From a virus, in the IMG/VR virus record IMGVR_UViG_3300034683_000117, positions 1 to 64,000 of that record: DNA of 64,000 bases; one strand, written 5' to 3'. Every line of letters begins with the position of its first letter. Positions within the stretch are counted from its first letter, which is position 1. This document shows positions 1,775-49,714 of this stretch, piece after piece. Below the pieces are notes generated by a model. It was not told the DNA's origin and did not search any database. It saw nothing but the letters and a program-made list of their open reading frames with translations. A program made the position numbers and the translations under genes.

Positions 1775-3936
1775 ACATGTTAATAATCAAACACGATGGA
1801 CTGCCTTTAGCATATATTACTCCGGAATCCGATAATCTAAAAGATGTATGGATAGACAAACAGCTCAATGGCCCATGTACGTTGTCATTTTCTCTCCCAT
1901 TAAGCAGCAGTAAATGGCAATATATTACTCCACAGAATGTTATCGAATGTGATGGAAAAGATTTTATAATACTAAACGAGTCTGCAATTGAACACACGCG
2001 TGAAGGGCGTACTGTGTGGGGAACAGTGCAAGCTGAGGAAAGTTGGATATTATTAAGCAAAAATTTTCCAAGCATCCCCCCCGCAGGGACACCAGTTGGC
2101 GAATTAATTGTAACTATTCTATCGTCAAGTGCGTATACAGTACTATCCAAACTGTTGCAAAATACTGATTGGACCGTTGGGTCTGTTGACAGTAGCGATA
2201 TTCATGACTTAGAAACAGAAAAATTGTCTACCCTTGCTAATATAAATGAGGTGCAAAAAATATGGGGCGGATATTTAGTTTGGGACAGCTTCGCACACAC
2301 TGTGAGCCTACGCAGCGAAGATGCGTGGCAACCTTATACTGGATTCCGTATACAATATGCTAAAAATGAGAAATCCATTACTCGTACCACAGATTGCAAT
2401 ATAACTACCAGATTATATCCGTTTGGTAAAGAGGATTTGAATATTGCTAACGTTAATAACGGCATCTTATATTTAGAGAACTACCAGTATACCGATCAGG
2501 TATTAGAGGATATCATGCAATATCCTGATATTGACAATCAAACAGAACTCAAAAACAAAGCCATAGAAGATTTAGCTAAATTATCAAAGCCCCGCGTTAA
2601 TTATAAGGTCAGTATTGTAGATGTGCGTACATTACCTGGGTATGAACACGAAATATTTGATATCGGTCATATTGTCGATATATATGATCCAGAGTTATCA
2701 CCAGACGGTGCGCATGTGCGAATTATCCGCTATAAATACAATGTATTACAACCATGGCAATGTGAACTCGAGATCGGCGACCCAATGGAAACTATTGAAT
2801 CAATTTTAGCTGATTCGTCACAAACGTCAGACACTGTAACTAATAATAAAGATAAATGGGATAGTGCACCTGAAAACCTTAATAAACTGGTCAACGGACA
2901 GTATGTTGGTGGTACGTTTATCGACGGTACCAGCGTAATATCTCCAACAATAGGTGGCAACAATGGTAAGTTTATTGGTACTGTAACGGTTGGTTCTGGT
3001 AGTCCTATTGTAATTGATGGTGTAAATAAAAAAATTAGCATTAATTCTACTAATTACATTGATACTAATGGGATTCATGTTGATGCAGCATACATTAGAG
3101 GCACGCTTGATGCAAGTATTGTTAATGTTACAAATATAAATGCTAGTAATATTACTACTGGAACACTAACAGGTATAACATTAACTGGTGTCACCATATA
3201 TGCAACTGGTGATATGAATGTGGGTAAGAATATTATATTATATAAAGATTATGGTGGTATTGGAGGAGTTTTACAGTTTGGGCCATCAAACAGCGCACCA
3301 AAAGTAGCAACATTTGGAAATACACTTGCTATAGTTGGATATGACGGTAGTGGGGACGTTACTGTATATGGAACTCTAGGGAGTACGCATTTACGGAGTA
3401 ATAATATATATACAGATTATTTATACGGAAGTCATAATTCTGATCAAATATATATTGGTTCATATGGTTGTCGTATTGATACTACTAGTGGAATATTGCG
3501 TTTACAACAATCAACAAGCGATTATATATCTATAGATTCTAGCGGGAATGTAGCGATTTATGCTGGTGGCACTGTAAAGCATAGGTTTAATTCCGATGGT
3601 ACCAAAACTGGCGGTAGTATTGTTATTGATGGTGTAAACTTAGGTATGTCGCCTATTGATGCTCCGGAAATTTTAATAGCTGATATAATGCGCAATGTAT
3701 CGCTAATAGCAGGTGACAATGAAATATTACTAGACGACAAAACTGCGCAAGCTTTATATGACTATTCGGTATTTATAGAAAATAATAATGGGGTAGGAGT
3801 TATGAGTAAACAATATGATAAATTTATAGTACATTCCGATATACCAAAAACAGTCGATATATTAGTGGTCGGACGTCGTGTTGAACACGAAGATACGCGA
3901 TGGATTCAGATGGATAATATACAAGAAGGGAGTTAG
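1765..3936 (+). CDS. Phage tail protein / Tal-like baseplate hub (Prophage_tail family)
   Basis: YAKNEKSITR, ITTRLYPFGK, PRVNYKVSIVD, IGHIVDIYDPEL; Gly/Thr-rich beta-repeat C-terminal half. Confidence 0.8.
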   Translation: MGVNMLIIKHDGLPLAYITPESDNLKDVWIDKQLNGPCTLSFSLPLSSSKWQYITPQNVIECDGKDFIILNESAIEHTREGRTVWGTVQAEESWILLSKNFPSIPPAGTPVGELIVTILSSSAYTVLSKLLQNTDWTVGSVDSSDIHDLETEKLSTLANINEVQKIWGGYLVWDSFAHTVSLRSEDAWQPYTGFRIQYAKNEKSITRTTDCNITTRLYPFGKEDLNIANVNNGILYLENYQYTDQVLEDIMQYPDIDNQTELKNKAIEDLAKLSKPRVNYKVSIVDVRTLPGYEHEIFDIGHIVDIYDPELSPDGAHVRIIRYKYNVLQPWQCELEIGDPMETIESILADSSQTSDTVTNNKDKWDSAPENLNKLVNGQYVGGTFIDGTSVISPTIGGNNGKFIGTVTVGSGSPIVIDGVNKKISINSTNYIDTNGIHVDAAYIRGTLDASIVNVTNINASNITTGTLTGITLTGVTIYATGDMNVGKNIILYKDYGGIGGVLQFGPSNSAPKVATFGNTLAIVGYDGSGDVTVYGTLGSTHLRSNNIYTDYLYGSHNSDQIYIGSYGCRIDTTSGILRLQQSTSDYISIDSSGNVAIYAGGTVKHRFNSDGTKTGGSIVIDGVNLGMSPIDAPEILIADIMRNVSLIAGDNEILLDDKTAQALYDYSVFIENNNGVGVMSKQYDKFIVHSDIPKTVDILVVGRRVEHEDTRWIQMDNIQEGS

Positions 3937-3942
3937 CAATTT

Positions 3943-4092
3943 ATGGATGTAGATGTAAATAAAATAATAGAGAAATTACAGATGATTATAGGACAACAGG
4001 CCGTACAAATTGCAGCACTGCAAGTTGTCGTAGATGAATTACAAGCCAAATTAGGTGATAATAATGGCACAAAACAAGATAGTCAATCCTGA
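3943..4092 (+). CDS. Small coiled-coil protein (49 aa, not in ORF track)
   Basis: MDVDVNKIIEKLQMIIGQQAVQIAALQVVVDELQAKL...; GGAG RBS; fills the gap between Tal and the recombinase. Confidence 0.6.
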   Translation: MDVDVNKIIEKLQMIIGQQAVQIAALQVVVDELQAKLGDNNGTKQDSQS

Positions 4093-5047
4093 TGAATTCC
4101 AAACTAAAGTATCACGTGAAAACAAGGCGTTGATACAAGACTTTTTAGATGAAAAAAGGGCGCAAGGTAAGCGCCCTAAAACTATATATCAGTACGAACA
4201 TGACATGAGAATTATTGTCACATTATTATATCGGCATTTTGATAATAAAAGTTTACTCGAATTAACACGTAAAGATATACGCAAATTGGTTTTGATATTC
4301 CAAGATATGGGTATGTCAAATGCTAGAATTAATAGATTGGCAAGTTGTTTACGTTCTGCTTTAAGTTATTTTGAAGAAGATGATGAGATAGATTATCAAA
4401 ATAATGTGGCACATACAATAAAAGGGTTGCCTAAAGACCCGGTTAAAGAAATTGTATTTTTAAAAGATGAATGGATATATATGTTGCGTGATGAGCTTAT
4501 TAGACGCGATAATTTGCTTGTTGCTATGTATTTAATGTTATCATATATTACGGCAGGCCGTAAGAACGAAATTCTGCAAATATTGAAAAACGGATTGCTT
4601 GATGGTTATACAACAAACATGGTAGTCGGCAAACGTGGCAAAAAATTCAGGTTATATTATGACCAAGATACGCAGGATATTATTAGGGAGTATTTAAAAC
4701 AACGCGGGGACGATGATATTGAGGAACTGTTTGTTAAAGTTAAAAAAGACGGCAGCAAAGAAGTGTGCGGTTATGGTTCGCCTGACTATTGGTGCCGTTA
4801 TATGTCTCGTATTTTAACTCAATTGCTTAACACACAAATTAAATTTAACCCACATTCTCTGCGCCATTCACGCTTAGAAAATCTGTCAACTGGCAATAAC
4901 AAATATGGAATTAAAGTTGACCTTAGCGATTTACAAGTATTGGCAAATCATTCTGACCCTGGAACAACTAAAAACTATATCATGGAACACAAAGAAGATT
5001 CATTAAGTAAGATTTTTAGGATAGACCCTAATCAATTCGTATTATAA
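4064..5047 (+). CDS. Tyrosine recombinase/integrase
   Basis: AGRKNE (R), GKRGK (K), PHSLRHS (HxxR), ANHSD...TKNY (H, Y) catalytic motifs; SAM-like N-terminus. Confidence 0.9.
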   Translation: MAQNKIVNPDEFQTKVSRENKALIQDFLDEKRAQGKRPKTIYQYEHDMRIIVTLLYRHFDNKSLLELTRKDIRKLVLIFQDMGMSNARINRLASCLRSALSYFEEDDEIDYQNNVAHTIKGLPKDPVKEIVFLKDEWIYMLRDELIRRDNLLVAMYLMLSYITAGRKNEILQILKNGLLDGYTTNMVVGKRGKKFRLYYDQDTQDIIREYLKQRGDDDIEELFVKVKKDGSKEVCGYGSPDYWCRYMSRILTQLLNTQIKFNPHSLRHSRLENLSTGNNKYGIKVDLSDLQVLANHSDPGTTKNYIMEHKEDSLSKIFRIDPNQFVL

Positions 5048-28444: not shown

Positions 28445-28518
28445 TGGAGCACCTGTGGAGACTTGAACTCCAATTAATGGATTACAAATCCAACGTTCTA
28501 CCGTTAAACTACAGGTGC
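28445..28518 (-). tRNA. tRNA-Thr (anticodon UGU)
   Basis: GCACCTG/CAGGTGC acceptor stem, D arm GTTT/GAAC, anticodon loop TTTGTAA, T arm TGGAG-TTCAAGT-CTCCA, encoded CCA. Confidence 0.9.
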
Positions 28519-28587
28519 ATAGCGGAGATATAATCTCCGCATATATAAAACGCTCTAGATCAGGAGACGATGCCTTTAAAGAACGTT

Positions 28588-32820: not shown

Positions 32821-33717
32821 TTAAATCGTTGCAACAACATCCAACGGACTGCGATTTACTGCGGTTTTTAAAGCATTGCTATCAACATGTGTATATATTT
32901 GCGTTGTGGATATATTACTATGTCCTAAAATTTCCTGCAACTGTCTGATATCCATATTGCCACTCTGATAATTCAGTGTCGCAAATGTATGTCGTAAAGT
33001 ATGAACAGCAACGCCGCGTTTGTTCTCTATATTTAACCCGCTTCGACCTATTGCGTTCTTTACGATACGTTCAACCACATCATGAGATATGCGATTGCCG
33101 ATTTCTGACACAAACAGCGGCCTGTTCGGATCGGTGCAGCCCTGCGTATAATCTGCTAACTGTTTAACCATGTTATCGCTTAAATATACATTACGCTCTT
33201 TCCCTCCCTTCCCTTTGATAACAATATACCCATCTTTTATATCACCAACATTAATAGACACAAGCTCAGATAGTCTCATGCCGGTTGTAAGCAATAAGCT
33301 TACTATCAGTCTATCTCGCACCATGTTGCGCCCTTTGATATTATCAATAAGCTGTCGGCACTGTTCTATGGTGAAGTACCTTGGTATGGTTTTATCTATT
33401 TTAGGCGCATCGATATCCTGCATTATATTGTTATCTATAATCTTACGCATATGCAAATATGCAAAAAACGATCTTAAAGACGCAATCTTTCTACGCCTTG
33501 TAGAAGCGCTGCATCCGTCTTGCGATAATTTATATAACCATGCATAAATATGATCTATTGTGACGTCTTTTAACGCTAATGAGTCAATCGCAAAATAATT
33601 GTTGGCCATATACGAATACCACGATGCTATATCTTGTATATATTGTTTAATGGTATTGTCACTTTTATTAACACCAACTAAATACATTTTATAATCATCT
33701 AATATCGTACTGTACAT
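32821..33717 (-). CDS. Tyrosine recombinase (XerC/D-like)
   Basis: TGMRLSEL, GKGGKER, HTLRHTFAT, LGHSNISTTQIYTH. Confidence 0.95.
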   Translation of the reverse strand: MYSTILDDYKMYLVGVNKSDNTIKQYIQDIASWYSYMANNYFAIDSLALKDVTIDHIYAWLYKLSQDGCSASTRRRKIASLRSFFAYLHMRKIIDNNIMQDIDAPKIDKTIPRYFTIEQCRQLIDNIKGRNMVRDRLIVSLLLTTGMRLSELVSINVGDIKDGYIVIKGKGGKERNVYLSDNMVKQLADYTQGCTDPNRPLFVSEIGNRISHDVVERIVKNAIGRSGLNIENKRGVAVHTLRHTFATLNYQSGNMDIRQLQEILGHSNISTTQIYTHVDSNALKTAVNRSPLDVVATI

Positions 33718-37314: not shown

Positions 37315-37393
37315 TGGTGGAGCTGCGGGGAATCGAACCCCGGTCCGGAGTTTTGCACGTTGGCCTTTCACTCCGTCGATACCTTCCAGCCCC
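37315..37393 (-). ncRNA. Mini-tmRNA: tRNA-like domain only (79 nt)
   Basis: GGGGCTG-GAAGGTATCGAC-GGAGT-(18 nt)-ACTCC-GGAC-CGGGG-TTCGATT-CCCCG-CAGCTCC-ACCA: tmRNA 5' and 3' end signatures, G3-U wobble, no D stem, no tag ORF. Confidence 0.8.
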
Positions 37394-37398
37394 TATCT

Positions 37399-37728
37399 TT
37401 ACACTCTTGCTAATGCCCTACACCCTATGATCTTACCCTGGTCATCTCTGACAGAATCATCTGGTATAACCAAATCTTGCCTATCTTTAGCAGCTTGGGC
37501 CACTAAAGCAGATACTATATACAATGTATCTGGCGCAGGATCTGGCAATCCGTCAACAGTACCATATAATGTCTTATTAATATTAACATTGATACCATTA
37601 ATATTAATAACATCTATAGTTTGTCTTGTCGTTGCGCACCTAGCCACTTGACCTGATGCTGGGATTGTTATATCCCCAGCATCTGTCAAGATATTGATAT
37701 CGTGAGGTGTTAAGTTAATTATCTTCAT
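37399..37728 (-). CDS. NLTPH-motif small protein, candidate Crn4-like ring nuclease
   Basis: IINLTPH, IP.SG..AR, GLP......YIVS, VRD..G.I.GC motifs. Confidence 0.5.
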   Translation of the reverse strand: MKIINLTPHDINILTDAGDITIPASGQVARCATTRQTIDVININGINVNINKTLYGTVDGLPDPAPDTLYIVSALVAQAAKDRQDLVIPDDSVRDDQGKIIGCRALARV

Positions 37729-38201
37729 ATTTTCACCTTCTCTATAATAAAATCTTTTACTGTTTGTTCAATATCTTCAAAATCGTATAAATACATGTTA
37801 CATGCAACATCCCAAATGTCGGCTACATCATCATCAGTCAATTTATCCACATATTCTGGGTAATGATCCTTTATATATTTTATTGCATGGTTATACAAAA
37901 TAGTTTCTCTGTTTTTGTCTAAAATATATTCATTATACATATACCATGCGTTTTGTATATCTTTAAGTATATCACCGCTAAAGTCTACAATACCTATTGC
38001 CTCATTGTAAAACCCAGCGTTATACAATTTTTCAAGATTGTTAAACAATTTATGTGAATATATACTTACGTACAAATCCGCAACTGTATTTATCGCGTCC
38101 TCTATATAGCCTTCATATTCAAATGCCACCTCATCGCACATCATGGCATCATCTTGTCCCTGTAACAGATTCTCTACATCGTATTTTTTATATTCTAACA
38201 T
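37725..38201 (-). CDS. Ocr-like acidic DNA mimic (paralog 1)
   Basis: IEDAINTVADLYVSIYSHKLF...GDILKDIQNAWY resembles the T7 Ocr core [21 protein letters not shown]...KDVIRILQARIY. Confidence 0.55.
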   Translation of the reverse strand: MLEYKKYDVENLLQGQDDAMMCDEVAFEYEGYIEDAINTVADLYVSIYSHKLFNNLEKLYNAGFYNEAIGIVDFSGDILKDIQNAWYMYNEYILDKNRETILYNHAIKYIKDHYPEYVDKLTDDDVADIWDVACNMYLYDFEDIEQTVKDFIIEKVKI

Positions 38202-38288
38202 TTTTCTTCCCTCCAATTTTATTATTTATGTATCTATAATATAGAGTTTTGATACTCTATATTATAAACCCTACACAAAAATTTTTAT

Positions 38289-39211: not shown

Positions 39212-39694
39212 TTATTGATCACCTCCTTTTATCCATTCCACCAATTCATCAACGATGGATTCGATATCTGCGAACTTGTTTCCATCATCAATATTTGTTA
39301 GTGCTAGTGCTAGATCGCTGACTTTTATTTTGTCTACAAATTCTGGATAGCGATCTTGAATAATTCTAACTGCATAGTTAAACACTATCTCGTCAAAGTT
39401 ATTATAAATTTGCCGCTCGGTATAATAGTACCATGCTTGTCCAATGTTTTTGATTAAGTCTCCAGCATCGCCATATTCTTGTATAACATCATCATAATTG
39501 CCACTATTATACAGTATTGGAACAGCTTCAAATAATACATCGTTCCATATACTGACCGATGAATCAGCTGTCTCTGTTATTGCTTCTCTAATTTCAACAT
39601 CACCAGCCACATCTAACACGCGGTCAAGGACTTGTTCGTCGTCCTGCAATTCCCCTAACAGATTCTCTACATCGTATTTTTTAAATTTTAACAT
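39212..39694 (-). CDS. Ocr-like acidic DNA mimic (paralog 2)
   Basis: Paralog of 37725-38201 (shared KKYDVENLL, AI...AD..VSI, GD..K.I..AWY.Y.E). Confidence 0.55.
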   Translation of the reverse strand: MLKFKKYDVENLLGELQDDEQVLDRVLDVAGDVEIREAITETADSSVSIWNDVLFEAVPILYNSGNYDDVIQEYGDAGDLIKNIGQAWYYYTERQIYNNFDEIVFNYAVRIIQDRYPEFVDKIKVSDLALALTNIDDGNKFADIESIVDELVEWIKGGDQ

Positions 39695-39805
39695 TTTTAA
39701 TTCCTCCAATTTTATTATTTTATTTTATATAATATATAGTATTTAACAATGTATTTTTAAACCTTGCCTCAATTTTTTTACCAGCATTTTTATTGAACGG
39801 TTCTA

Positions 39806-41719: not shown

Positions 41720-44447
41720 TCCATTTTTTATATTTATTTTATGCTTCTATTATAATGCTTGATTGTTTGATTTGCAATGCGAACATATACGAACAAATTG
41801 TAAACTTTTTATTAAGGCAATTTTTACCAATAGCTAGTAATACCAGTGTTTCGATAACAATTATTAACAATTAATACATATCATGTATAATTACATTTAT
41901 ATATATTTATGTTATATGTTTACAGTGAATATGTTACATAATTAACATTATATATGTTAAATAGGTTACAAATGGAAAATGTCAAATAATAACAAGTGGC
42001 TATAAGAGGCATTTTTAAGCGTTAGAATTGATTTTTTAAGGCAAGGTAAAATCATACGAGCACTATTCAAAAAATCGATTATAGCAAACGGTAGGATTGT
42101 AAAAGATGTAAAATGTTAGGTGAAATGCTAACATATATATGCAATACTAACATATAGTGTTAGTATTTTTACAGTTTGTGTTATACATATATTAACATGT
42201 ATGCATATGCTATTATTACATATTATATACATTAATATGTAATATGTGGTAATTACATAAGCATAACGATCACAATATCAAGTTATATATTATTATTTTA
42301 GTATGAATTATATTATATATAGTATAGTGCTTTAGTTATATTTATTTATGTTATAGTATATCAATTTACTATGAATTTATCAACCGATTGTTAACCATTG
42401 TTAAAAATTGGATTGACAATTGCCTTAAGGCCAGAATGCTGTAATCATTATCCAATTATGTTATATAGATTATTAATTGTAAAATATTAGTAATAAGCAG
42501 GCTACTACCCAGAATCGGATACTCATTATACATTTTTTACATTATTGTAATTGATTGACAATGGATATAAATGTTAATAATATCCTTTTTTTTGCTATTG
42601 TGTAATATACAAATATTGTATATAAATATATGTTGATATGAATATATGAATATATGAATATGTGTTGAAGTATGAATATATTGTATATATAGATATTAAC
42701 ATATGAATATATGAAACTATGAATATGATATTGTTAAATGAGTTAACAAAGTCTTGTTAAAATTGACAATTCTTGCTATTTCCTTTTATTTATTTTTATT
42801 TACGATTTTTTACGATTATTTATTTTTTTGATTGTTTCCATTTCCTTCCATTACTTGCGTCATAACATATATTATAACGTATGTTTATATTATCCAGTAT
42901 ATACCCACTACAGGTATATAGTTAGAAGTGGCTTGAAATAGCGGTTTGTATCCCATATACGGGGGGGATATTTTACTGTTAGCAGTTGTAAAAAATGGAA
43001 ATCAGAGGCGCTACCTCTTTTCCTCCCCCTCTCACCTCAATTTTTCACCCCCGTTTTTGCACAATTTTATTTTTACGGTTTTACTGATTTACTGCTTATA
43101 TTTTGGCCTAACAGCATAACAACTCGCATCTCTGCGGTTTGAACCATATCAAATCTCGCTCTGCCTCGTTTTTGCTATGCTATCTGTATATTTTCCCCGT
43201 AATATTTACGTTAGCTTATTGTATTATCCCCGCATTTTTTATCACCAAATTTTATAATTAATACTAAAAAATAGAATTAATAATTAAATAAATACTAATT
43301 ATTTGATTAAAAATTGAATTAAATTTCAATTAATTTGCCCTGTTTTTGTTCAAAAATCATTGATTTTCGATTAAATTTGGCCTATTTTTAATAAATTTTG
43401 ACTTATTTTGAATTAAATCCATATTTTATATAAAAAATATAATTTATTCTATTTTTGGGTCTATTTTTTATTATTTTAATCATCTCCGTAGCCAATAAAT
43501 ATAAAAAATAATTATATCCGTTAATGCTGATACCATATCGTTGCCCCCGACTATGTTCGCACAAACTTTCATACGTGAGTTTTGATGTACTCTCCATTGT
43601 GGGTCCACGATGAATGCATTTATTACTGGCGGGTTTTATTGCTCCATATCTTCGTCTTTAGCTTCATTGTCGCCGCAGCGACCTAAAACTAATTTATACT
43701 AAACTAATATGTTATTATATATTTAACATACTAATCATTTGTATAATATATACAAAATAATATAAGTTTTATTGATATTTATTTGTGCAATATGGAGAAT
43801 TTTTAATAAGGGGGTTGTAATAGCGTCGTTTTGCGGTCATATATTATGTAAGGGTATCGATAGAAAGACACTAAGAATAATAAATATATATAATATATAT
43901 AATAAATAATATTAGTACTGGTGGGGGCGCTACGCCGCCTCCCCACACCCCCCGGCGCATTCGTTCGCTAACGCTCACGAATGATAACCAATTAATAAAT
44001 CCTAATCCTTCGAAACTAAGAAATATGTGTTAATAAATAATCAGATACGAATAATCAGAACTAATCCAAACCAAGAGTGAATCAATAATAATATAATAAA
44101 TATATATAATAATATATATAATATATATAGTATTAGTATCTCAATCTCCTAAGTAAATAAGTGGCAACTGATACGGTCCAGCTCCTAAGTAAGAGAGTGC
44201 GTTGGTAAAATTTATATTTTTTTAATTGTTAAATTTTGTATTAAAAATTGTTCTTGACAACTCAAAAATATATAATATAATGGTATTATAATATGTATAT
44301 ATAAGATATAAGAGGCAAAGTCGAACGAAATGTCAGTTTTGCTTGATTTAATGCGTGTTTGCGGATTTGACTATAGTGCCAAATTTGGCACATTACCCTG
44401 TCACTTTTGGCACTATAGTCCCCCTGTGATATTAAAAATAAAGGAGA
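41720..44447. other. Long AT-rich non-coding region at the transcriptional divergence point (putative origin/terminus)
   Basis: No credible ORF over ~2.7 kb; short ATATGAAT repeats, a G7 run, GC-rich hairpins at 43920-43985 and an inverted repeat at 44369-44420. Confidence 0.6.
44369..44420. repeat. 15-bp perfect inverted repeat upstream of the rep-like gene
   Basis: GACTATAGTGCCAAA...TTTGGCACTATAGTC, with an internal GTGCCAAATTTGGCAC palindrome. Confidence 0.8.
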
Positions 44448-46306: not shown

Positions 46307-46495
46307 ATGGATGGGTTAATATCAATTAATTTTGACAGGCAGACGATTAGTGCTAGAGAGTTATGGGAAAGGTTAGATAGGCCATATACGAAATTCACGA
46401 TGTGGTTTAATGCCTATAAAATTATGGTTTTATAGAGGATCAAGATTATCGCAGGGTGTCAGTAAAAACTTACACCCCAGCAGGCGAACATAATT
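46307..46495 (+). pseudogene. AntA/AntB antirepressor fragment
   Basis: MDGLISINFDRQTISARELWERL...FTMWF..Y, then frameshift to YGFIEDQDY. Confidence 0.7.
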
Positions 46496-46522
46496 AATAA
46501 TTCAAATAAGGAGTATGATAAT

Positions 46523-47560
46523 ATGGCGTATAGAATTTTTCTTGACCCAGGTCATGGTGGCTCAGATAGGACTAACAAAGGTCCGACCGGATATGTAGAG
46601 GCTGATGGTGTATTAGACATAGCGTTACGTCTACGTTCTGAATTGCAAGACTTAGGCTTTGTGGTAGGTATGAGTCGAGACAAAGATGTCAGCGTAAGCT
46701 TATCGCAACGTGGCAAAATGGCAGGACAATTTAAGGCAGATTTATTTTTGTCCATACATTCTAACGCTGGTCCGGCTGCTGCGTCTGGTACAGAAGTATA
46801 CTATTCGGTGGATTTACCGCAAACCAAGGCAATTGCCGCCAAAATGTCAAAAGCAGTAGCAGATGTTTTAGGTATTCCAGATAGAGGGGCAAGAGTTAGA
46901 GAATCGCAGAATTACAAAGGCGAAGATTATTATACGGTAATTGATGCCGCACAGGACGCTGGGGTGCCACGTGTGTTTTTGATTGAAGTTGCATTCCACA
47001 GCAATCCTAAAGAAGAAGCATTGTTGAAACAGCCTAATATCAGAGAAAAAGTTGCTGATGTATTAGCCAATGTTATTGCAGATGCATTTGGCATTAAAAA
47101 AGCAGATGCGAACATACCTATAGTGCCGATAAACAATAGGCGTGGTATAGTGAATGTTAACGGTAATTTAAATGTGCGCAATGGTCCAGGTGAGCAGTAT
47201 GCAGTAATTGGAAAATTGCAAAATAATGATGCGGTTACCGTTACAGGTGAATCTGTTGGTTGGTACAGGATTAATTACAATAATGGTGTAGGTTATGTTA
47301 GTAGTAGATATGTAGTATTAGACAATTCAAGTAATAATTCAAATCAGAAAGAAGAGGATGATGTAGTGGATACGATAATAGTTTATTATGGTGACATTGA
47401 TGCGTTAGCGGCTATAGTATTAGGCCAAAAATACAAAGCCCCTGTAATGCGTAAGTCTGATTTTGATGCCAGTGGTATCAAGGCTAAAAAGGTTATACAA
47501 GTAGGTGGAGGTGAAGGTGATAGGTTTGACACGTTCAAACGAGCCGCACAATTGCTCTAA
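46523..47560 (+). CDS. Endolysin, N-acetylmuramoyl-L-alanine amidase (Amidase_3 plus SH3b)
   Basis: LDPGHGG, E, SIHSNA, LIEVAF; LNVRNGPG...GWY.I.Y...GYVS. Confidence 0.93.
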   Translation: MAYRIFLDPGHGGSDRTNKGPTGYVEADGVLDIALRLRSELQDLGFVVGMSRDKDVSVSLSQRGKMAGQFKADLFLSIHSNAGPAAASGTEVYYSVDLPQTKAIAAKMSKAVADVLGIPDRGARVRESQNYKGEDYYTVIDAAQDAGVPRVFLIEVAFHSNPKEEALLKQPNIREKVADVLANVIADAFGIKKADANIPIVPINNRRGIVNVNGNLNVRNGPGEQYAVIGKLQNNDAVTVTGESVGWYRINYNNGVGYVSSRYVVLDNSSNNSNQKEEDDVVDTIIVYYGDIDALAAIVLGQKYKAPVMRKSDFDASGIKAKKVIQVGGGEGDRFDTFKRAAQLL

Positions 47561-48309: not shown

Positions 48310-49714
48310 GGGGGTATATAAATTTTTAGATACAAATAATAATTTTTATGATACAAAGGAACTCACTCAAAATGATTAAAGCATATAAAGTAATGCTATT
48401 ACCGAATAATAAACAACAAACCAAGTTATTTGAATGTGCTAGTGTTGCTAGATGGGCGTATAATTGGGCACTAGAACAAGAACAAATTAATTACAAAAAT
48501 GGTGGTAAATTTTTGTATGATAGTGTTTTAAGGAAAAGATTAACTGAGCTTAAGCAAACAGAAGAATATAAATGGTTAAATAATTATTCAAATAATATCA
48601 CAAAACAAGCAATAAAAGATGCTTGTAGCGCTTATAAGAATTTTTTTGATGGTCGTGCTGAATTTCCTAAGTTTAAGTCTAAGAAGAGAAATACGCCAAG
48701 TTTTTATCAAGATACAGCTAAAATAATTATTACAGATACCCACGTCAAATTAGAAAAGTTAACAACTTCGCAGAAAACTAACAAGTTAACATTTAATTGG
48801 GTTAGATTAGCTGAACCAGGGAGAATCCCATGCGGCGAAAATATTAAATATTTTAATCCGCGTATAACTTTTGATGGTTTGCACTGGTGGTTATCGGTAG
48901 GCGTAGAAGAAGATATACAATATAATGATACCACTTATTCTGAAGGCATCGGTATAGATTTGGGTGTTAAAGATTTGGCTATAATCAGTACAGGGCGGGG
49001 GTTTAAGAATATCAATAAATCTGATAAGGTTAAAAAACTCGAAAAGAAACTTAAGCGGCTGCAAAGAAAGTTGTCCCAAAAATATGAACTTAATAAAATT
49101 CAAACAGACGCAGGTAAATACCATTACAGAAAAACTAACAATATAAAGAAGTTAGAATTCCTCGTCCGTAAAACCTATAGAAGGCTTAAAAATATAAGAT
49201 GCGATTATATTCATCAAACAACTACGTCTTTGGTGAGAACCAAGCCAGAGTATGTAGTAATGGAAAATCTGAATGTTTCTGGTATGCTGCAAAATAGAAA
49301 ATTATCAAAAGCTATACAAGAACAGAGTTTCCATGAGTTCAAAAGACAGATGGAATATAAATGCGCGTGGCATGGAATTCCGTTTATACTAGCAGATAGA
49401 TATTATCCATCAAGCAAAACTTGCAGCAGATGCGGTAATGTAAGGGATAAATTATCATTGTCAGAAAGAACATTTATATGCCCCGAATGCGGGTATAAGA
49501 TTGACAGGGATTTAAATGCTAGTATAAATCTTAAAAACTATGGTGAATCAATAGTATAGCACAAAACGCTGCTATTAATATGTACCCATATGTTAGTGGG
49601 GAATTTAAGCCTTTGGAGTGTCAAACAAACACAAGTAGGTTTATCCAAAAGTGGACATGATGAACAAGGAAGGAAACTTAAACTTTATAAAGTTTTGTAA
49701 GTTTTCTGTAACAG
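48310..49714 (+). mobile_element. Non-autonomous IS607-type element carrying TnpB
   Basis: TnpA tail remnant (KELTQND*) overlapping the tnpB ATG; downstream right end/omegaRNA-like region ending AAGTTTTCTGTAACAG. Confidence 0.65.
48372..49559 (+). CDS. tnpB: RNA-guided endonuclease TnpB
   Basis: N-terminal HTH, FPKFKSK, GIDLG, VMENL, PSSKTCSRCG, CPECG, DRDLNAS; RuvC D-E-D intact. Confidence 0.95.
   Translation: MIKAYKVMLLPNNKQQTKLFECASVARWAYNWALEQEQINYKNGGKFLYDSVLRKRLTELKQTEEYKWLNNYSNNITKQAIKDACSAYKNFFDGRAEFPKFKSKKRNTPSFYQDTAKIIITDTHVKLEKLTTSQKTNKLTFNWVRLAEPGRIPCGENIKYFNPRITFDGLHWWLSVGVEEDIQYNDTTYSEGIGIDLGVKDLAIISTGRGFKNINKSDKVKKLEKKLKRLQRKLSQKYELNKIQTDAGKYHYRKTNNIKKLEFLVRKTYRRLKNIRCDYIHQTTTSLVRTKPEYVVMENLNVSGMLQNRKLSKAIQEQSFHEFKRQMEYKCAWHGIPFILADRYYPSSKTCSRCGNVRDKLSLSERTFICPECGYKIDRDLNASINLKNYGESIV

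Follow-up and report, generated by a model that had tools for sequence, protein, structure and literature searches.

A tmRNA reduced to its tRNA-like domain belongs to a widespread, covarying family of phage RNAs

Introduction

Trans-translation is the main route of ribosome rescue in bacteria, and to our knowledge its handling by phages is poorly known. Here we describe a 79-nt phage gene, situated at 37315-37393 on the minus strand of a 64,000-nt stretch (positions 1 to 64,000, hereafter the window) of the IMG/VR virus record IMGVR_UViG_3300034683_000117, that consists only of the tRNA-like domain (TLD) of transfer-messenger RNA (tmRNA) and that we designate a mini-tmRNA. 

RNAs of this kind are already known but barely studied. 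Hudson, Lau and Williams (2014; PMC4131195) listed 'Mycobacterium phage DS6A (TLD only)', and the 2025 tmRNA database (PMC11915505) repeats the point on DS6A and contains nine sequences of the 'Standard, no CDS' form (CDS, coding sequence), which is the form of the DS6A entry (tmRNA Website tmID 11587; see also Mao et al. 2009, cited second-hand). A similar TLD-only RNA reportedly inhibits the tmRNA of Escherichia coli, as related second-hand in PMC4131195 and PMC11915505, and according to PMC4131195 it does so whether or not it can be charged. We found no paper on a broad family of phage mini-tmRNAs, the record that we found being DS6A and the nine database sequences. An initial annotation of our locus, made from its sequence without database searches, knew TLD-only forms mainly from mitochondria, and thus overstated the novelty of the form, since phage DS6A had already been published.

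The features that define the tmRNA TLD have been reviewed (PMC3968760): its identity for alanyl-tRNA synthetase (AlaRS) lies in an acceptor stem of 7 bp, the pair G3·U70, the discriminator A73 and a 3′ CCA; the D loop is stemless, with D-loop/T-loop contacts being needed for the binding of SmpB; and helix 2 corresponds to a long variable arm. The complex of the TLD with SmpB and EF-Tu has been crystallised on the ribosome (reviewed in PMC3968760).

Anatomy of the mini-tmRNA and comparison with known systems

A cmscan of the window with the Rfam tmRNA model (RF00023; gathering score, 47 bits) matched the 79 nt with 65.9 bits (E 1.9e-23), aligning model positions 1-374 end to end, with 18 nt standing in for 312 interior positions. 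The sequence quoted in the initial annotation lies base for base at 37393->37315 of the minus strand, and its description as a complete alanine-type TLD without an mRNA-like domain agrees with the model match, the fold and the presence of G3·U70, A73 and CCA. The D region lacks a stem and ends in GGUAUCGAC, and is followed by a helix 2a of 5-6 bp, the GGAC motif and a perfect T arm. The minimum-free-energy fold contains an acceptor stem of 7 bp, a helix 2a of 6 bp and a T stem of 5 bp; its energy is a weak departure from shuffled sequences (z-score, -1.23), which we take as unremarkable for an RNA the size of a tRNA. Thus, every reviewed feature defining a TLD is present, that is, acceptor and CCA, G3·U70 plus A73, stemless D loop and helix 2. 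The GC content is 62 % in the mini-tmRNA versus ca. 35 % in the phage. We found no tag frame, resume codon or stop codon in the mini-tmRNA, the 18 nt between the strands of helix 2a being too short for them, and helix 5 and the pseudoknots PK1-PK4 are missing along with the 312 model positions.

The two program checks proposed in the initial annotation had different outcomes, with Rfam keeping the tmRNA model and ARAGORN leaving the gene uncalled, its sole report in the window being a tRNA-Thr elsewhere. An identity as tRNA-Ala was rejected, because the fold has neither D stem nor anticodon loop, ARAGORN makes no tRNA call at this position and Rfam clan competition keeps tmRNA over tRNA. Considering the E-value and the occurrence of the same architecture, with covarying helices, in at least 157 viral contigs (see below), the match to tmRNA is far beyond chance.

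With canonical tmRNA (ssrA; RF00023) the mini-tmRNA shares the acceptor stem with G3·U70, A73, CCA, the GG..UCGAC of the D region, helix 2a, GGAC and the T arm, but it is devoid of the mRNA-like domain, helix 5 and the four pseudoknots, and cannot direct tagging. The closest published relative is the element of DS6A, which we located at 28478-28560 of JN698994.1; with 43.2 bits it falls below the RF00023 cut-off, and it was missed by our regular expressions, by stem scans and by cmscan at the gathering threshold, and found by cmscan in E-value mode. Both RNAs are phage-encoded, have ca. 80 nt, match RF00023 from 1 to 374 with ca. 20 nt in place of 312 interior positions, possess G3·U70, a stemless D region, helix 2a and a T arm, lack a tag frame, and are flanked by protein genes, in the coding orientation. 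The DS6A element differs in its D and GGAC motifs, which deviate (CGAC and GCAC), and in its 3′ end, CUA instead of the CCA of the window, whose copy, with 65.9 bits versus 43.2, is the more canonical TLD. The two phages are also dissimilar, DS6A being an actinophage and ours a low-GC phage with a polymerase nearest to that of Sundance, and they have no flanking genes in common.

The CDS-less organellar tmRNAs (jakobid mitochondria; Mallomonadaceae plastids, ~65 bp) are similarly devoid of a tag frame and, according to PMC11915505 and PMC3590771, are thought to act with SmpB. However, they are the sole tmRNA of the organelle and use an imported SmpB, whereas the mini-tmRNA is a viral extra copy in a cell with a full tmRNA; they also appear to be mostly permuted, judging from the database counts of 72 'Permuted, no CDS' versus 73 mitochondrial sequences. 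Laboratory TLD constructs (PMC3968760) have the same acceptor, D region, helix 2a with a short loop and T arm, but they are engineered, whereas the RNA of the window is natural and contains a family-specific interior with A-rich and CCN-hairpin motifs.

A large family of covarying phage mini-tmRNAs

A strict pattern (GGGG, TCGAC, a short interior, GGAC, GGGTTCGANTCCC and CCACCA, with U70 left free) identified 50 loci in IMG/VR, and this list is complete because a scan with sub-patterns recovered solely members that had already been found; a relaxed pattern identified at least 120 loci. Across IMG/VR, mini-tmRNAs amount to at least 157 viral matches in unrelated phages, with 129 unique sequences of 67-95 nt. 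Both patterns forced GGGG, TCGAC, GGAC, part of the T loop and the 3′ TCCA, the conservation of which is therefore unreadable from these samples. A mini-length match to RF00023 above the cut-off was obtained for 46 of the 48 records tested, with 49-81 bits, so the 65.9 bits of the window are typical of the family. A blastn comparison of a 1.1-kb region of the window with cultured phages returned no close relative, and two pattern scans of JGI metagenomes gave no match to its mini-tmRNA.

Without any filtering, the acceptor stem was paired at 7/7 positions in ca. 155 of the 157 viral matches, once start offsets were corrected, and the T stem at 5/5 positions in 156. Covariation was counted from fixed anchors, without an alignment, in 87 unique sequences that had been selected beforehand for intact acceptor and T stems; the figures of 87/87 for these two stems partly follow from the filter, so that the unfiltered counts carry that point, and, the sequences of the family being related, the pair counts are not independent events. 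At positions that were not forced by the patterns, acceptor pairs 5-7 were paired in 87/87 sequences with 2-5 pair types, T-stem pairs 1-3 in 87/87 with 4-5 pair types, and helix 2a pairs 1-5 in 79-87 of the 87 with 5-6 pair types, compared to ca. 36-42 in the permutation control for this helix. Permutation of the partners left ca. 35-59/87 pairs at the variable positions, and ca. 79/87 at acceptor pair 7, which hardly varies. Compensatory evolution was thus seen in all three helices, indicating that they are under selection. The initial annotation had argued for selection rather than decay and had suggested a search for homologs and for stem covariation; both searches, with at least 157 viral matches and three covarying helices, favor that argument, and the homologs form a coherent family of 67-95 nt rather than a set of full-length tmRNAs with random deletions.

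Position 70, left free in the strict pattern, was U in 42/42 unique viral sequences, and the pair G3·U70 is also kept in DS6A and in the cultured phages Jojan60 and LuckySocke. The two G preceding (U/A)UCGAC in the D region, likewise unforced, were conserved in 111 and 94, respectively, of 130 relatives. CCA was encoded in 25 of 89 sequences found with the relaxed pattern, versus an expectation of 1 in 64 by chance.

In three loci, ARAGORN called 'tmRNA' genes of 324-396 nt with odd tag peptides (L016:5905-6228, L037:11650-11973 and L041:10275-10670). These look like false calls, in which the 3′ end of a mini-tmRNA was joined to a far upstream 5′ end.

The 18-nt loop had the length given in the initial annotation, which had treated it as a mere replacement of the missing domain, yet it is not arbitrary filler. 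Most relatives contain, after helix 2a, an A-rich run, (U/G)AAA(G)CC, and then a CCN/NGG hairpin of 3 bp, with covariation at the third pair; an inner hairpin of at least 3 bp was present in 110 of 130 relatives, versus 78 +/- 4 in shuffled sequences. In the window (GAAAGGCCAACGUGCAAA) the A-rich run is kept and the hairpin is down to a 2-bp remnant. A stop-like U-R-R triplet spans the junction of helix 2a and the loop in 59 of the 87 sequences, versus 24.7 +/- 4.1 in shuffles, and is UGA in the window; we treat it as an unexplained motif and not as evidence of decoding.

Distribution of the family

Phage tRNA genes were found within 300 nt of 22 of the 157 mini-tmRNA loci, always on the same strand, and at least five tRNA genes in 18 of the 157, which suggests that mini-tmRNAs could be expressed and processed in the manner of tRNAs. 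The copy of the window lies outside any tRNA array, unlike ca. 1 in 7 of its relatives, and a tRNA-Thr(UGU) gene with encoded CCA is situated 9 kb away on the same strand (28445-28518, minus).

Among cultured phages, Stenotrophomonas virus Jojan60 carries a mini-tmRNA of 61.8 bits (ON045087.1 37722-37804; L079:2501-2583), overlaid by a CDS for a 'hypothetical protein' and beside tRNA genes, and Streptomyces phage LuckySocke carries an unannotated one of 57.1 bits within a tRNA cluster (OR725497.1 17977-18057; L080:2501-2581); GiJojo is a third case. In the record of Jojan60, the tRNA features are annotated on the strand opposite to the tRNA matches of Rfam. Two complete phages have more than one RNA of this type: a 124-kb phage (G030, behind L132) contains a full-length tmRNA (77588-77979, 94 bits) together with a mini-tmRNA (46486-46567), and a 136-kb phage (G044, behind L176) contains two mini-tmRNAs (42520-42602 and 109671-109753).

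The strict pattern gave 32 matches in 185,579 genomes of bacterial and archaeal species, taken one each. Of these, 28 failed the acceptor test, being the 3′ ends of ordinary tmRNAs with a chance GGGG...TCGAC upstream, so that mini-tmRNAs are almost missing from these genomes. The few true mini-tmRNAs coexist with a full-length tmRNA of different sequence on another contig, and are therefore not fresh deletions of the host gene. A prophage copy in a Pseudonocardia metagenome-assembled genome (MAG) (L233:1501-1581; G001:C158:1790-1870; 45.8 bits) is preceded by a tyrosine-recombinase match ending ca. 130 nt upstream, and an attP-like role is possible there.

Neither the 48 mini-bearing phage records nor the contig of the window encode SmpB, so that any SmpB partner must be that of the host.

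The carrier phage and the gene neighborhood

The carrier is a 77-kb IMG/VR virus record, with a CheckV completeness estimate of 54 %, that contains genes for terminase, portal, a tail protein, DNA polymerase III alpha, ribonucleotide reductase and a DnaB-type helicase. The DNA polymerase III alpha encoded there has its closest match, at 49 % amino-acid identity, in Brevibacillus phage Sundance, and the DNA of the carrier was detected in subsurface and soil metagenomes of one study. The source metagenomes (runs X2-X4) also contain a second copy of the mini-tmRNA with other flanks, which corresponds to 37327-37395 of the window, is changed at four positions of the interior loop (37357, 37359, 37361 and 37365) and identical in its 3′ 44 nt; metagenome assemblies break at the mini-tmRNA because its T arm is common to other sequences.

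The mini-tmRNA is oriented like the small minus-strand genes in whose run it lies, near a divergent AT-rich region at 42-44 kb (Table 1). The open reading frame (ORF) upstream ends in a TAA (37401-37399) located 5 nt ahead of G1, and its 109-aa product is similar to the ring nucleases Crn4b (9r7b, E 1.3e-15) and Crn4a (9sma, E 6e-14) in a phmmer search of the PDB. Among 25 phage homologs, the motif NLTPH (T7, H9) is invariant and R94 is nearly so, and we equate these putative active-site residues with T13, H15 and R112 of PMC12830947, where H15 and R112 of Crn4 are catalytic, T13 is conserved, and phage orthologs of Crn4b are considered possible anti-CRISPRs. A tRNA gene occupies the position of the mini-tmRNA, right beside the Crn4-like gene, in other loci (L073/L074:3451-3530; L075/L076:2858-2930 and 3925-4017).

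The start codon (ATG) of the Crn4-like gene and the stop codon of the Ocr-like gene before it overlap, and this Ocr-like gene has a paralog at 39212-39709. Downstream, the ribosome binding site (RBS) of the following ORF (AAGGGGTG, 37308-37301) starts 7 nt past the CCA of the mini-tmRNA, in agreement with the placement described in the initial annotation, and its ATG (37295) lies 20 nt past. The 121-aa product gave no PHROG family, no Pfam match above the cut-off and no credible sequence match in the PDB; a weak structural lead points to a HicB-like N-terminal domain (TM 0.39 by query and 0.58 by hit, over 55 residues), with no sequence support.

Besides the promoter-like stretch ahead of the Ocr-like gene, a perfect TTGACA-17-TATAAT, matching the sigma-70 consensus by sequence only, is situated further upstream (39208-39180), and no terminator-like site was found between it and the mini-tmRNA. 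The transcript bearing the mini-tmRNA likely starts at the promoter-like stretch before the Ocr-like gene. Its co-transcription with these genes and its early timing are inferences from the gene layout; of the early operon proposed in the initial annotation, the placement between phage genes holds, and the word early rests on position and on the types of neighboring genes.

A gene for a XerC/D-like tyrosine recombinase (32821-33717, minus; SAM-like N domain plus catalytic domain, 128 bits) lies 3.6 kb from the mini-tmRNA, inside the replication/early run, and its product is 36 % identical to that of a gene which, in a Clostridiales MAG (L108), adjoins an ordinary tmRNA gene. The window contains a second tyrosine-recombinase gene (4055-5047, plus). 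A 403-aa ORF (48348-49559, plus) matches phrog_506, 'transposase' (E 9.8e-112), and is followed after 50 nt by a RAGATH-18 RNA (49610-49671, plus; Rfam, 62.3 bits); we suspect that both form a small insertion element between the early region and the structural genes.

Table 1. Features of the mini-tmRNA and of its surroundings, with coordinates in the window
Feature	Coordinates	Strand	Basis
Mini-tmRNA gene, TLD only, 79 nt	37315..37393	-	RF00023 match, fold
Acceptor stem, 5′ strand GGGGCUG; G3 of G3·U70 at 37391	37387..37393	-	Pairs 7/7 with 37319-37325
Stemless D region GAAGGUAUCGAC	37375..37386	-	Aligned to tmRNA consensus GGaUUCGAC; unpaired in fold
Helix 2a, 5′ strand GGAGU; possible sixth pair C37375-G37346	37370..37374	-	RF00023 alignment, fold
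18-nt interior GAAAGGCCAACGUGCAAA, in place of the whole mRNA-like domain and pseudoknots	37352..37369	-	RF00023 alignment
Helix 2a, 3′ strand ACUCC	37347..37351	-	RF00023 alignment, fold, covariation
GGAC linker, tmRNA-typical	37343..37346	-	Aligned to consensus GGAC
T arm CGGGG-UUCGAUU-CCCCG	37326..37342	-	RF00023 alignment, fold
Acceptor 3′ strand CAGCUCC (U70 at 37321), discriminator A73, encoded CCA	37315..37325	-	Sequence
Crn4b-like ring nuclease gene, 109 aa; candidate anti-CRISPR / anti-cyclic-oligoadenylate enzyme	37399..37728	-	phmmer vs PDB
Ocr-like (anti-restriction) gene; 3′ end overlaps Crn4-like start	37725..38216	-	phrog_2568, E 2.3e-5, weak match
Downstream ORF, 121 aa	36930..37295	-	Sequence
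Promoter-like TGTGTAGGGTTTATAAT, then inverted repeat, upstream of Ocr-like gene	38240..38270	-	Consensus match only

Proposed role of the mini-tmRNA

On balance, we lean towards the locus being a functional small-RNA gene, whose product would be a processed, tag-less mini-tmRNA that is charged with alanine, captures the SmpB of the host and competes with the host's tmRNA. It would be transcribed early, within a polycistronic counter-defense operon comprising the Ocr-like gene, the Crn4-like ring nuclease gene, the RNA and small ORFs. RNase P would free its 5′ end at G1 and the 3′ trimming by the host would halt at the encoded CCA; AlaRS would then charge it through G3·U70 and A73, and host SmpB, with EF-Tu, would bind at the elbow formed by the D loop and the T loop. 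Lacking a resume codon, a tag frame and pseudoknots, the mini-tmRNA cannot tag proteins, and by competing with host tmRNA for SmpB and stalled ribosomes it would either block host trans-translation in infected cells or uncouple it from proteolytic tagging. What this proposal takes directly from observation is the anatomy, the large covarying phage family, the conserved alanine identity pair and the lack of a phage SmpB.

Several points weigh against it. Expression, processing, charging, SmpB binding and a benefit to the phage are steps that we infer. The published inhibition by a TLD-only RNA was independent of charging. At least one prophage copy, that of the Pseudonocardia MAG, has G3-C70 and breaks the alanine identity rule. 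The association with counter-defense genes was seen in the genome of the window alone: a tblastn search with all the ORFs of the window found no flanking gene shared with other mini-tmRNA loci, and no mini-tmRNA was found within 3 kb of the Crn4-like homologs in 26 phage loci. Since its flanks are unshared and Crn4-like homologs occur elsewhere without the RNA, the mini-tmRNA gene appears to move on its own, like phage tRNA genes.

The mini-tmRNA may also act within the ribosome, a bolder alternative that we hold to be rather unlikely: the charged RNA, together with SmpB and EF-Tu of the host, would move into stalled ribosomes, accept the nascent chain and release ribosomes caught on cleaved messages while leaving the proteins unmarked for degradation, a tag-free rescue that would counter RNA-cutting defenses. 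This would fit the adjoining Crn4-like gene, because type III CRISPR RNases activated by cyclic oligoadenylates would be expected to produce non-stop mRNAs. In a still bolder sub-case, the U-R-R triplet would be a tag frame of zero length, giving the addition of alanine and release.

Conversely, the RNA might be simply a sponge, sequestering host SmpB, and perhaps its RNase R partners, with neither charging nor ribosome entry, and so shutting down trans-translation. The inhibition of E. coli tmRNA by a TLD-only RNA, chargeable or not, as told second-hand in PMC4131195, is in favor of such a sponge, as are the agreement of the D-region GG, UCGAC and the GGAC/T-loop with the tmRNA consensus, considering that D-loop/T-loop contacts are required for SmpB binding (PMC3968760), and the lack of SmpB genes in the mini-bearing phages. 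However, a sponge has no need of AlaRS identity, and a G-C pair would be more stable, but U was present at the free position 70 of all 42 sequences, and CCA is encoded well above the chance frequency (25/89 versus 1 in 64). Conservation of G3·U70 is not explained by simple SmpB capture, because the published inhibition needs no charging, and argues that charging matters; we thus find the plain sponge unlikely. SmpB capture and tag-less ribosome entry, the two functions put forward in the initial annotation, are both plausible from the sequence and are the two that we rank highest.

The position of the gene, 5 nt past a stop codon and 7 nt ahead of an RBS, with no room for its own promoter, could instead reflect a role in mRNA processing, the mini-tmRNA being an RNase P site that separates or stabilizes the Crn4-like and downstream messages, with no part in rescue. 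Any tRNA-like stem would suffice for this, however, whereas the D and GGAC motifs kept by the family are specifically of the tmRNA type, the alanine identity pair and the inner A-rich/hairpin motif are kept as well, and many copies are inside tRNA arrays and not between ORFs, making a punctuation role improbable. We consider equally doubtful that the RNA is a decoy or substrate for another tRNA-directed activity, absorbing a defense nuclease that cuts tRNA or tmRNA, or serving a phage enzyme of RNA repair or modification. The neighboring Ocr-like and Crn4-like genes would agree with it, and two further phages with a mini-tmRNA, DS6A (RtcB-like) and LuckySocke, also have RNA ligase genes; but such nucleases usually target the anticodon loop, which the RNA lacks, and no conserved protein partner was found beside it across loci. 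A paper on AcrIIIA1 was considered as a precedent and discarded, as it is about host tRNA/tmRNA fragments and phage-encoded mini-tmRNAs are not involved.

Lastly, the locus might be a relic without RNA function, either an attP core with which the phage integrates into ssrA or a captured ssrA in decay. The proximity of a recombinase resembling one beside a bacterial tmRNA gene, and the possibility in principle of recombination between the 3′ half of the mini-tmRNA and ssrA, would suit such a relic, but we find it very improbable. The true attP-type match, in Mycobacterium phage Validus, comprises the 3′ part only (query positions 48-79) and abuts the integrase, whereas in the window the two acceptor strands, the D region and helix 2a are all intact, with covariation across the family. 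In addition, the recombinase has no tRNA-like fragment beside it, only 1 of the 45 IMG/VR records examined is classed as provirus, and the mini-tmRNAs of bacterial genomes are unlike the host's own tmRNA. The locus is therefore not just an attP core, a possibility that the initial annotation had raised.

Significance

The family exposes a gap in annotation, since ARAGORN misses mini-tmRNAs and the copies of cultured phages (Jojan60, LuckySocke and GiJojo) are unannotated or concealed under a 'hypothetical protein'; at the same time, these cultured carriers make the function of mini-tmRNAs directly testable. The copy of the window is of value as a clean, canonical example within an apparent counter-defense operon. 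A minimal, natural and apparently chargeable TLD present in many unrelated phages may thus point to a widespread and unstudied manipulation of trans-translation.

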